Virus record (IMG/VR): IMGVR_UViG_2740892272_000004
Strand: one strand, 5' to 3'
DNA length: 43,535 bases
Source of the DNA: a virus
Lineage: Duplodnaviria > Heunggongvirae > Uroviricota > Caudoviricetes
This document shows, piece by piece, positions 1 to 43,535 of this stretch. The notes under the pieces are model-generated. The model had not been told where the DNA came from and searched no databases. It was given only the letters and a program-made list of their open reading frames with translations. The translations under genes and the position numbers were made by a program. The number at the start of each line of letters is the position of its first letter. Position 1 is the first letter of the stretch.

Positions 1-142
1 TACATTGAGATTTTCTACAATCGTCAGCGTCGTCACTCTCGTCTGGGGAATATCTCCCCGGCAGCCTTCAGGGAAAAATATCATCAGATGGCTGCTTAAA
101 AAAAGAACAAATGGTAGTGTCCGCTATTGCCAGTACACCTCA
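1..142 (+). mobile_element. Right end of an IS3-family insertion sequence: transposase OrfB 3' end (1..99, ...YIEIFYNRQRRHSRLGNISPAAFREKYHQMAA*) plus terminal repeat ending ...CCTCA at 142
   Basis: The in-frame translation of 1..96 has the conserved IS3-family OrfB C-terminal motif (FYNRQRRHS...SP..F). Positions 1..142 are an exact reverse complement of 43390..43531. The element body lies outside the window. Confidence 0.6.
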
Positions 143-164
143 CTATTCACAGTTAACTGAAACA

Positions 165-181
165 GTATCGTTTTTTTACAG
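165..181 (+). promoter_or_regulatory. MxiE box (GTATCGTTTTTTTACAG) upstream of ipaH
   Basis: Exact 17-bp match to the MxiE/IpgC-dependent promoter element consensus GTATCGTTTTTTTANAG (recalled from memory), about 130 bp upstream of the ipaH start codon. Confidence 0.75.
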
Positions 182-300
182 CCAATTTTGTTTGTCCTTT
201 TATAATAAAAAAGTGCTGAAGTTCATTTCATGGAATGAACTTCATAAAAACTCCTACTTATTTCTTTTAACAAAGCCATTTGTCCATCGGCTTTAACTGA

Positions 301-2016
301 ATGTCCATCATGTTACCGATAAATAATAACTTTTCATTGTCCCAAAATTCTTTTTATAACACTATTTCCGGTACATATGCTGATTACTTTTCAGCATGGG
401 ATAAATGGGAAAAACAAGCGCTCCCCGGTGAAAATCGGAATGAAGCGGTCTCCCTACTTAAAGAATGTCTCATCAATCAGTTCAGTGAGCTTCAACTGAA
501 TCGTTTAAATCTGTCCTCGCTACCTGACAACTTACCACCTCAAATCACTGTTCTGGAAATTACTCAGAATGCCCTAATATCATTACCAGAATTGCCAGCA
601 TCGCTGGAATACCTTGACGCCTGTGACAATCACCTGTCAACACTTCCTGAATTACCCGCATCTCTGAAACATCTTGATGTAGATAACAACCAACTAACCA
701 TGCTTCCTGAATTGCCTGCATTGCTGGAATATATTAATGCAGATAACAATCAGCTAACCATGCTTCCTGAATTACCTACATCGCTGGAAGTGCTCTCAGT
801 AAGAAATAACCAGCTGACATTTCTCCCTGAGTTACCTGAATCACTGGAAGCGCTCGATGTAAGTACTAATCTTCTGGAAAGCCTACCAGCCGTACCTGTA
901 AGAAATCATCACTCAGAGGAAACCGAGATATTTTTCCGGTGCCGCGAGAATCGCATCACATACATTCCGGAAAATATACTTAGCCTTGATCCGACCTGCA
1001 CTATCATCCTCGAAGACAATCCTCTGTCCTCACGGATCAGGGAGTCTCTGTCGCAACAAACCGCCCAACCGGACTACCACGGCCCACGGATTTACTTCTC
1101 CATGAGTGACGGACAACAGAATACACTCCATCGCCCCCTGGCTGATGCCGTGACAGCATGGTTCCCGGAAAACAAACAATCTGATGTATCACAGATATGG
1201 CATGCTTTTGAACATGAAGAGCACGCCAACACCTTTTCCGCGTTCCTTGACCGCCTTTCCGATACCGTCTCTGCACGCAATACCTCCGGATTCCGTGAAC
1301 AGGTCGCTGCATGGCTGGAAAAACTCAGTGCCTCTGCGGAGCTTCGACAGCAGTCTTTCGCTGTTGCTGCTGATGCCACTGAGAGCTGTGAGGACCGTGT
1401 CGCGCTCACATGGAACAATCTCCGGAAAACCCTCCTGGTCCATCAGGCATCAGAAGGCCTTTTCGATAATGATACCGGCGCTCTGCTCTCCCTGGGCAGG
1501 GAAATGTTCCGCCTCGAAATTCTGGAGGACATTGCCCGGGATAAAGTCAGAACTCTCCATTTTGTGGATGAGATAGAAGTCTACCTGGCCTTCCAGACCA
1601 TGCTCGCAGAGAAACTTCAGCTCTCCACTGCCGTGAAGGAAATGCGTTTCTATGGCGTGTCGGGAGTGACAGCAAATGACCTCCGCACTGCCGAAGCCAT
1701 GGTCAGAAGCCGTGAAGAGAATGAATTTACGGACTGGTTCTCCCTCTGGGGACCATGGCATGCTGTACTGAAGCGTACGGAAGCTGACCGCTGGGCGCTG
1801 GCAGAAGAGCAGAAATATGAGATGCTGGAGAATGAGTACCCTCAGAGGGTGGCTGACCGGCTGAAAGCATCAGGTCTGAGCGGTGATGCGGATGCGGAGA
1901 GGGAAGCCGGTGCACAGGTGATGCGTGAGACTGAACAGCAGATTTACCGTCAGCTGACTGACGAGGTACTGGCCCTGCGATTGTCTGAAAACGGCTCACA
2001 ACTGCACCATTCATAA
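301..2016 (+). CDS. ipaH: IpaH-family type III secreted effector, E3 ubiquitin ligase (N-terminal LRR repeats plus C-terminal NEL domain); probable true start at ATG 310 (MLPINNNF...)
   Basis: Translation shows the MLPINNNFSL IpaH N-terminus, repeated LxxLPELPxSL LRR units, and the conserved NEL C-terminal domain with the catalytic Cys context (ESCEDRVALTWNNLRK) and C-terminus ...LSENGSQLHHS. Confidence 0.95.
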   Translation: MSIMLPINNNFSLSQNSFYNTISGTYADYFSAWDKWEKQALPGENRNEAVSLLKECLINQFSELQLNRLNLSSLPDNLPPQITVLEITQNALISLPELPASLEYLDACDNHLSTLPELPASLKHLDVDNNQLTMLPELPALLEYINADNNQLTMLPELPTSLEVLSVRNNQLTFLPELPESLEALDVSTNLLESLPAVPVRNHHSEETEIFFRCRENRITYIPENILSLDPTCTIILEDNPLSSRIRESLSQQTAQPDYHGPRIYFSMSDGQQNTLHRPLADAVTAWFPENKQSDVSQIWHAFEHEEHANTFSAFLDRLSDTVSARNTSGFREQVAAWLEKLSASAELRQQSFAVAADATESCEDRVALTWNNLRKTLLVHQASEGLFDNDTGALLSLGREMFRLEILEDIARDKVRTLHFVDEIEVYLAFQTMLAEKLQLSTAVKEMRFYGVSGVTANDLRTAEAMVRSREENEFTDWFSLWGPWHAVLKRTEADRWALAEEQKYEMLENEYPQRVADRLKASGLSGDADAEREAGAQVMRETEQQIYRQLTDEVLALRLSENGSQLHHS

Positions 2017-2195
2017 TCACATCGCATAAACCACAGACCGGACTGACTCCGGAAAAACAGAGGCCCGCCCCCGGGCCTCCCCGGATTCATCCGTTTCCCT
2101 GTTCAGCCTGACAGCACGCCCCCGCGGCCGGATGACAGACTCCGCCTCGGTAAGCAAAGCGGTCTTCTGTGATTCCGCCAGTTGCGGCTTATTCA

Positions 2196-42091: not shown

Positions 42092-42637
42092 ATGAACAAG
42101 CAAACAACAACATCTCTTTCTTTTCCTGGTGGTAGAAAAGAAAGCATTGCTGAGCGTCTGAAAAGGCTGATTGGCTCCCGCAGCGTCAGAGCTGCAGCAA
42201 GAGATTGGGGGCTTTCATTTTCAACACTAAACAATTATCTGTCTCGTGGCACTGAGCCATCCTTAAGTGTCGCCCTTCAGATTGCGTCTATCGAAGGAGT
42301 AAGTGTTGAGTGGCTATGTGGATTCAGTGATGCATCACAAGTGAATCGGTGTGAGATCAAGGAAAATCAAGATGAAAGCAAGAAGATAATTATGACGATT
42401 ATCAGCGCACTTGATGAAAAAGACTTAGAGCAGCTATCGAAAAATTTGGTTCTGAATGGAGCCAAGTACTTAGCTCGGTTGTTAGAGCCTGAAAATCAAG
42501 ATCTAATCCGCTTAGAAGGAAGGAAAAGAATAGCTGCATTACAGCTTGAAGGTATGTCTGACGAACGCGTCAGAGAGATTTTGGAAGAAACTGAGAGAAG
42601 TCGCAAATCTAACGCGGTAGAACCAAAAGCGGGTTAA
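42092..42637 (+). CDS. Putative prophage repressor (XRE/CI-type helix-turn-helix N-terminal domain)
   Basis: N-terminal IAERLKRLIGSRSVRAAARDWGLSFSTLNNYLSRGTEPSLSVALQIASIEGVSVEWLCG is a classic CI/Cro-type HTH; gene is divergent from ner-A-B, as the Mu c repressor is. Confidence 0.6.
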   Translation: MNKQTTTSLSFPGGRKESIAERLKRLIGSRSVRAAARDWGLSFSTLNNYLSRGTEPSLSVALQIASIEGVSVEWLCGFSDASQVNRCEIKENQDESKKIIMTIISALDEKDLEQLSKNLVLNGAKYLARLLEPENQDLIRLEGRKRIAALQLEGMSDERVREILEETERSRKSNAVEPKAG

Positions 42638-42709
42638 TAGCATTAGCCCGCATTTTGCACTATATCGAGTATTTCGCATTGTTTGGAACGCCTTAAAAGA
42701 CTAAAACCA

Positions 42710-42870
42710 CAGTATCAAATGAGTTGCCGATTTTATAATAAATGACTAATTATTGCACAATCGGTATCAAATAGACCTTATCCGCACATCTAGCCATCAC
42801 CTGTTTTATTTCAGTATCTTACAGGTGATTTCACCTCCTTTCACTAAACCCCTTGTCGGTATCAAATGAT
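42710..42870. repeat. Three direct copies of (C)GGTATCAAAT(G) (42712..42720, 42763..42772, 42858..42867) at the prophage left end, candidate transposase end-binding sites; 9-bp inverted repeat ATCACCTGT/ACAGGTGAT between them
   Basis: Motif recurs three times within 160 bp at the c-end of the prophage, analogous to the Mu L1-L3 arrangement. Confidence 0.45.
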
Positions 42871-43194
42871 TCACCTGGTTATATGTCGCCAGTCGATACC
42901 TTCCAGCAGCATCGCCAGCTGCGCCTGTGTAAGGAACACTTTGCCATCACGGGCTGACGGCCAGGCGAAGCGCCCACGCTCCAGCCGTTTGGTCAGGAGG
43001 CACAGTCCGTCACTGGTGGACCACAGCAGTTTAACCTGACTGCCGCTGCGGCCCCGGAAAATGAAAACATGGCCGGACATGGGATCGTCTTTCAGCGCCG
43101 TCTGTACTTTCGCAGCCAGGCCGTTGAAGCCATTTCTCATATCGGTGATACCGGCAACCAGCCAAATTTTGATCCCGGAAGGTAACGGGATCAT
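42871..43194 (-). CDS. IS66-family TnpB (orf2) accessory protein, C-terminus altered at the prophage junction
   Basis: Translation ...RNGFNGLAAKVQTALKDDPMSGHVFIFRGRSGSQVKLLWSTSDGLCLLTKRLERGRFAWP...LEGIDWRH matches the conserved IS66 Orf2 family; homology ends about 3 codons before the stop. Confidence 0.8.
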   Translation of the reverse strand: MIPLPSGIKIWLVAGITDMRNGFNGLAAKVQTALKDDPMSGHVFIFRGRSGSQVKLLWSTSDGLCLLTKRLERGRFAWPSARDGKVFLTQAQLAMLLEGIDWRHITR

Positions 43195-43389
43195 CGCTTC
43201 AGTTCCTGTATCAGCAGAGTCAGGAGCTTTTCGCTGACATTGCCATTGAAGCGGAGCGTCCCGTGCCGGAACGTTACCTCACAGCTGATACTGAGGGTTT
43301 TCGGGTCCTCTGCGAGCGATTCTGGCTGTTCGGCAGCTGCATCGAGAGTCACAGGAAGTAGCTGGGGGCTCTCTGAAGAAGGTAATAGC
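43191..43389 (-). pseudogene. IS66-family orf1 (TnpA) C-terminal fragment, 5'-truncated by the IS3-family insertion
   Basis: Short ORF overlapping the orf2 start in the typical IS66 arrangement; the upstream portion is replaced by the IS3-family terminus at 43390. Confidence 0.55.
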
Positions 43390-43535
43390 TGAGGTGTACT
43401 GGCAATAGCGGACACTACCATTTGTTCTTTTTTTAAGCAGCCATCTGATGATATTTTTCCCTGAAGGCTGCCGGGGAGATATTCCCCAGACGAGAGTGAC
43501 GACGCTGACGATTGTAGAAAATCTCAATGTATTCC
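43390..43535 (-). mobile_element. Right end of a second, inverted copy of the IS3-family element (OrfB 3' end 43433..43535 plus terminal repeat)
   Basis: Reverse complement of 43390..43531 is identical to 1..142. Confidence 0.6.

Follow-up and report, generated by a model that had tools for sequence, protein, structure and literature searches.

The stretch of DNA analysed here (43,535 nt, IMG/VR record IMGVR_UViG_2740892272_000004; below, the window) carries at its edges inverted partial copies of IS600, an insertion sequence (IS) of the IS3 family found in Shigella and enteroinvasive Escherichia coli (EIEC). Between them lie the effector gene ipaH3, a phage tail-fibre remnant, pieces of an IS66-family element and a Mu-like prophage. 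An earlier note had taken the inverted pair for the bracket of a 43-kb unit that could invert, be deleted or be mobilised. The best overall explanation, which we consider likely, is that an IS600-broken scaffold was joined through an internal repeat and that there is no 43-kb unit. Both the elements and the assembly effect are already known.

IS600 ends at the edges of a draft scaffold

A repeat search over the whole window recovered the inverted pair as the earlier note had given it: positions 1-142 are the exact reverse complement of 43390-43531 (142 nt, 100% complementary), and the right arm has four extra IS bases, reaching 43535. Relative to a full 1,264-bp copy (8542-9805 in L012, the locus taken from the complete genome CP176614.1), the left arm (1-142, plus strand) corresponds to IS600 nt 1123-1264 and the right arm (43390-43535, minus strand), located within an IS66-family tnpA gene, to nt 1119-1264. 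Thus, two 3' ends of IS600 face inward from the scaffold edges, and just the terminal ~11% of either copy is present in the window. The left arm consists of the last 32 codons of orfB (YIEIFYNRQRRHSRLGNISPAAFREKYHQMAA*) with the stop codon at 97-99, followed by 43 nt that include the right terminal inverted repeat and run to the terminus ...CAGTACACCTCA, its CA ending at 142.

The transposase 3' end and the CA terminus, attributed in the earlier note to an IS3-family element, could be identified as IS600. A 156-nt IS end has matches in 806 Escherichia/Shigella plasmid records; those matching features that are annotated bear the name "IS3-like element IS600 family transposase" and show 98-99% identity over 152-156 nt; the arms are 100% identical to the full copy of L012. 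They differ from IS600 of Shigella and EIEC in nothing but their partial extent. Full copies, sought outside the window as the note had advised, are found in complete S. sonnei genomes at each of the two junctions (1,264 bp, TGAGGTAGCC...CAGTACACCTCA, TG...CA ends). The CP176614.1 copy runs TGAGGTAGCC...ACACCTCA and codes for a fused 385-aa product with HTH_Tnp_1 and rve domains. Across L002-L012, orfA and orfB with their frameshift are annotated either as 100-aa and 272-aa products or as the fused 385-aa one, with the Pfam domains HTH_Tnp_1, HTH_21 and rve (DDE).

The perfect 142-nt match is that of two copies of a multicopy element and is not due to chance. Since full IS600 copies of complete S. 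sonnei genomes are already 99.5-100% identical to each other, the 100% identity of the arms carries little information. In addition, the inner part of a repeat end in a short-read assembly would represent a consensus over all copies.

The window is the entire scaffold CWVH01000021.1 (43,535 bp) of GCA_001258215.1, a short-read draft of Shigella sonnei. This record was reached via a match of the 388-aa tail-fibre fragment, and its first 9,936 bases are those of the window save for one N; proteins of these scaffolds are labelled Shigella sonnei by their sources. The edges of a complete draft scaffold such as this are the points where assembly broke at a repeat, and IS600 appears to bracket the window for that reason. 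The exact 388-aa tail-fibre fragment occurs in seven contigs, all of them 20-50-kb draft scaffolds. The product of tnpB interrupted by the Mu-like prophage is found on 20-50-kb contigs in 108 of 110 blocks and in one complete genome only. Sister contigs stop in IS600 or IS1 (one of them, L013, in an IS1 end).

Shigella chromosomes contain 229-348 IS copies (PMC7373316). S. sonnei assemblies of the Sanger pipeline have on average 405 contigs, and its tools SSPACE and GapFiller were described as greedy, with false joins possible (PMC5320598). Short-read assemblies halt at such multicopy IS, which is why the scaffold ends 142 and 146 nt inside two IS600 copies. In stopping within an IS at both ends the window resembles other IS-bounded contigs of short-read Shigella assemblies, but it has in addition an internal join across a non-IS repeat (ipaH, DUF4376 gene and tail fibre).

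Separate insertions of the two IS600 copies

The left IS600 is inserted 158 bp upstream of the start codon of ipaH3 (301-2016, plus strand), which codes for a 571-aa type III secretion effector with LRR and NEL E3-ligase domains (Pfam LRR_TTSS and NEL; RefSeq name IpaH3/Hc). The inner copy of its target duplication is CTA at 143-145 (plus strand). In complete S. sonnei genomes such as L002 the full element is located at the window's exact left junction (...GCAAGCAAGCTA / IS600 / CTATTCACAG), with CTA on both sides. The corresponding empty site, GCAAGCAAGCTATTCACAG, was found in EIEC VL40 (L001) and in S. sonnei lineage 1.5 (L011, CP179997.1; lineage assignment from PMC12795559).

For the right IS600, the inner copy of the target duplication is GCT at 43387-43389 (minus-strand reading). 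CP176614.1 has the IS66-family tnpA split by the full element (...GGGAAAGCTGCT / IS600 / GCTATTACC), with GCT on both sides. The uninterrupted target, GGGAAAGCTGCTATTACC, is present in sister contig L013. We dropped this contig as a strict empty-site allele and retained it merely as an uninterrupted target sequence, because the IS66-type element is multicopy and the sequence may derive from a paralogue; it is likely that the IS-free tnpA of L013 was assembled from a paralogous IS66 copy.

Each IS600 is thus flanked by its own 3-bp duplication, of the length expected for an IS3-family element, and the target halves are contiguous at the left copy in L002-type genomes and at the right copy in CP176614.1. 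Since the two duplications (CTA/CTA and GCT/GCT) are intact and different, the two IS600 did not move as a pair. In the genomes with intact duplications, at least, neither copy has recombined with another one. No IS600 pair with exchanged flanks and no second orientation of the 43-kb segment were found in CP176614.1 or in L002-type genomes. Both copies are real and complete elements, inserted independently. The synteny comparison proposed in the earlier note speaks against its own claim: in complete genomes the ipaH3-side IS600 is located at yebU-pphA and the IS66-side IS600 at tadA-mltF, that is, at different chromosomal loci, each seen in a different assembly.

Only the presence of inverted IS600 arms at the ends speaks for a composite transposon, in which two IS600 copies and the DNA between them would have imported ipaH and the prophage as a unit. 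We consider this extremely improbable. Each copy has its own matching 3-bp duplication and known empty sites, pointing to separate insertions; no duplication is shared by the outer flanks, and the 43-kb unit was found neither at any other site nor in any complete genome searched. The layout would also place two left terminal inverted repeats (IRL) outermost, whereas IS3-family elements transpose via a circle junction between the IRL and the right repeat (IRR) of a single element. The target duplications exclude the composite-transposon reading.

In complete S. sonnei genomes the exact ipaH3 protein is encoded at the yebU-pphA / xis-int-yebY locus, where a second, inverted IS600 begins 72 bp past the ipaH3 stop codon (window-equivalent 2088/2089). 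This downstream copy is present in every complete S. sonnei genome examined, including lineage 1.5, and is absent from the window. It abuts the xis gene and is flanked by differing triplets (TTC versus CAT), a sign of an IS600-linked deletion of the prophage body beside ipaH3. A deletion at the ipaH island, as foreseen in the earlier note, can thus be linked to IS600, but at this downstream copy with its non-matching flanks and not at the copies that end the window. In L002 (8579-13052) ipaH3 lies between inverted IS600 copies 1,946 bp apart; the true architecture of ipaH between inverted IS600 is therefore ~2 kb and not 43 kb in size. A third IS600 is located 1.8 kb upstream in L002.

Upstream of ipaH3, GTATCGTTTTTTTACAG (window 165-181) fits the MxiE-box consensus. 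This putative box is located 22 nt from the end of the left IS600, a distance at which the insertion seems to have left a putative MxiE-type regulatory site of ipaH3 intact.

The 2.9-kb repeat and the link across it

The left ~2.4 kb of the window is linked to the remaining 41 kb inside a multicopy repeat (1054-3958, not assigned to a strand), which includes the 3' half of ipaH, a DUF4376 gene and the tail-fibre gene. It shows 99.2-99.8% identity to at least five S. sonnei loci (tadA-mltF, dinI, mlrA, bioA and pphA), with the match to the pphA locus extending as far as 2088. Identity values, a table of variable positions and runs of N suggest that the window's version is a mosaic or consensus, with a suspect join near 2372-2389.

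Alleles of different loci are mixed within this repeat. At 1452 the window does not have the ipaH3 allele of complete genomes; it carries alleles of the dinI, mlrA and bioA loci at 2146-2388 and tadA-locus alleles from 2990 on. The sister scaffolds L045 and L048 have tadA-locus alleles at 2146-2301, where the window has those of other loci. The DUF4376 protein gene (2196-2819, minus strand, 207 aa; assigned by Pfam) is accordingly an allele of other ipaH loci and not of tadA; exact look-ups of its product and of a 115-aa open reading frame (ORF) of the IS66-family remnant returned other loci.

Gaps are located in the same region. L045 has 508 N at window-equivalent 2372/2389, and L046 has 229 N at window-equivalent 2372/2473, after which it continues into the smpB locus instead of ipaH3. 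Contiguity of the segment between the IS600 copies thus depends on a join placed within a repeat of at least five loci, where sister scaffolds show N gaps and alternative partners. Another gap is located at the right end of the prophage. Position 4370 is A in the window and a single N in the deposited record, and 292 nt present in sister scaffolds (121 nt from the right end of the Mu-like prophage and 171 nt from IS66) are missing at 4370/4371. A one-N gap that hides 292 bases shows that gaps were not closed reliably in this scaffold.

Paired short reads cannot resolve a repeat of this size with no fewer than five locations, and a false link between the ipaH3 locus and the IS66-tail fibre locus may have been the result. 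The "43-kb segment" would then be a product of scaffolding and gap filling and not a unit that inverts or moves; we think that it is probably not one real stretch of chromosome. With its edges being assembly breaks, the join across the repeat suspect and the target duplications separate, the invertible or mobilisable unit of the earlier note is not upheld. We observed directly that the window equals the scaffold, that the element is IS600, that each copy has its own target duplication, that the repeat and the runs of N exist, and which loci are occupied in complete genomes; for this particular strain we infer, with reasonable though not high confidence, that the join is false.

Several points weigh against the false join. 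In three sister scaffolds (L045, L048 and L047, which is the window itself) the Mu side leads to ipaH3. Within one contig each, L045 and L048 have DUF4376 alleles of the tadA type that run on into the 5' region specific to ipaH3, and a real crossover of two ipaH paralogues between 1361 and 1451 would give the same pattern. Finally, the origin of this assembly in the SSPACE/GapFiller pipeline is undocumented; we infer it from the accession series and the N gaps.

These scaffolds could also be expected if the join were real. In that case, ipaH3 (pphA locus) and the ipaH of the tadA locus would have undergone homologous recombination within their conserved 3' halves, with inversion of the intervening chromosome, which we consider unlikely. 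The shared ipaH3 link in three sister scaffolds and the fit of L045 and L048 to a single crossover in the interval given above are in line with such an event. If the records share an orientation convention, ipaH3 and the tadA-locus ipaH are apparently opposite in complete genomes, and recombination between opposite copies would yield an inversion with the window's exact layout. IS-flanked inversions of 20-130 kb were documented in S. sonnei (PMC12795559).

The N gap in L045, with 508 N set against a distance of 16 nt in the window, speaks against a real join. So do the path of L046 into another locus (smpB) and the window's own alleles at 2146-2388, which come from yet other loci. A real join would also imply an inversion of ~1.4 Mb within one replichore, and inversions of this kind are usually disfavoured; no complete genome examined has that configuration. 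The missing IS600 at 2088/2089 was not counted against a real join, because a crossover upstream of 2088 would remove this copy.

If real, the join would bring ipaH3 and its upstream IS600 next to the Mu island and place 43 kb between inverted IS600 copies, so that RecA-dependent flipping could occur. We find it rather improbable that the strain belongs to a sublineage with a megabase inversion, in which a hybrid island (ipaH3, the tail-fibre remnant and a complete Mu-like prophage) lies between inverted IS600 copies. Whether the join is false or real, no sign of inversion between these IS600 copies was found. Like the S. sonnei inversions mentioned above, the window has inverted IS copies flanking tens of kilobases, which is a known substrate. 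It differs from them in that no second orientation is seen, the target duplications are intact and the segment is probably non-contiguous.

The Mu-like prophage and its IS66-family target

Apart from the bracket, most of the content described in the earlier note was confirmed: ipaH, a tail-fibre remnant, IS66 pieces and a Mu-like prophage are all present. The label "lambdoid" given to the tail fibre is questionable: EIEC VL40 has this module within a prophage that carries baseplate and contractile-tail genes. The remnant (2770-3936, minus strand, 388 aa) has its 5' end cut by the IS66-family element and matches only positions 35-131 of the Pfam phage_tail_N profile. No exact record was found for the 390-aa tail-fibre ORF.

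The prophage (4371-42883, minus strand; delimited by Pfam and comparison with sister scaffolds) has genes for com/mom, a SASA-DUF6645 protein, gin with an invertible segment, tail, head, mor, gam, B, A, a ner-like protein and a repressor, as assigned by Pfam. Its Mu-like nature is seen in MuA/MuB, repressor/ner, gam, mor, com/mom and gin with an invertible tail-fibre segment, and the same prophage ends adjoin different genes across many E. coli and Shigella genomes. It is inserted in the IS66-family tnpB, for which complete genomes (L049) provide the prophage-free site, GGCGACAGCC. Among complete genomes, only CP176614.1 shares this Mu insertion; in strain 53G (L019) the island carries a different insertion of this prophage type.

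The intact right end in sister scaffolds reads ...CGCCGCGCTATA. In the window this end is incomplete because of the unfilled assembly gap described above; a true deletion was considered and rejected, given the N at the exact spot and the sister scaffolds with the 292 bases. Mu-type insertion is expected to duplicate 5 bp of the target. The flanks of this prophage share a 4-nt direct repeat only, GACA (window 42880-42888; L048 5388-5400; L049 ~7395), and in L017 (1487/14409) the prophage is flanked by the 4-nt ACTG. The termini are TATAACC...GCTATA, with TGTAACC in L017.

A real invertible segment does occur in the window, of the same kind as the Gin-controlled G segment of phage Mu. Inverted repeats (9388-9473 and 10635-10720) are located beside a Gin-type serine invertase gene (8745-9317, minus strand), and the segment has the opposite orientation in sister scaffold L045; both states occur among sister assemblies. 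This G-like segment is ~1.2 kb in size, site-specific and unrelated to the IS600 arms. The gene between gin and com/mom (6605-8659, minus strand) codes for a protein of 684 aa with DUF6645 and a SASA carbohydrate-esterase domain; this exact protein is very widespread, occurring in 4,464 collection blocks.

The closest phage-database matches to the prophage are Mu-like inserts inside Stx phages (~91-92% identity). Two records of Shigella phages, with S. flexneri serotype 4a as host, were also matched, outside the ten best hits shown. These two might be SfMu, which was set aside as the identity of the prophage.

Of the IS66-family element, the window has the 3' terminal ~415 bp with the C-terminus of tnpC (3959-4370, minus strand; identified by sequence comparison and Pfam) and the 3' part of tnpA with the interrupted tnpB (42884-43389, minus strand; from Pfam and the Mu-empty site of L049). 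At the border of the prophage and tnpB there is a fusion ORF of 107 aa (42871-43194). In complete genomes this right part comprises a microcin-like gene, IS3-family and IS110-family elements, tnpA::IS600, tnpB, the tnpC remnant and the 388-aa tail fibre. L012 2916-10311 corresponds to L049 1-7396 at 99.99% identity. The Mu-free version continues in complete genomes with DUF4376, an ipaH of 603-608 aa, resolvase, rpiR, tadA, mltF and purL.

The IS66-family remnant (3959-4370 and 42884-43389; L048 5393-5978) is itself chimeric or internally deleted. Compared with the multicopy element in L034, it lacks ~1.06 kb; identity is 92-95% in its 5' part, falls to 75% over the following ~140 nt and reaches 99.6% in the final 457 nt. 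Three of the four combinations of prophage and tnpA-IS600 were seen: prophage without IS600 (L013), both (L012) and IS600 without prophage (L049). These combinations are at odds with a simple tree, most likely owing to the paralogous origin of the IS-free tnpA in L013.

A real join would be a documented case of ipaH-ipaH recombination that has reshaped the S. sonnei chromosome, a result of moderate value for Shigella genomics, and the hybrid effector island could invert further. For the favoured explanation, a scaffold joined across the repeat, the message is one of caution: in IS-rich genomes such as those of Shigella, draft contigs necessarily end in IS copies, paralogous ipaH islands can become fused in scaffolds, and an architecture deduced from a window of this kind, such as an "island bracketed by IS", may not exist. 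What the window reflects is already described biology, namely independent IS600 insertions, IS600-associated loss of a prophage body near ipaH3 and a Mu-like prophage residing in an IS66-family remnant.

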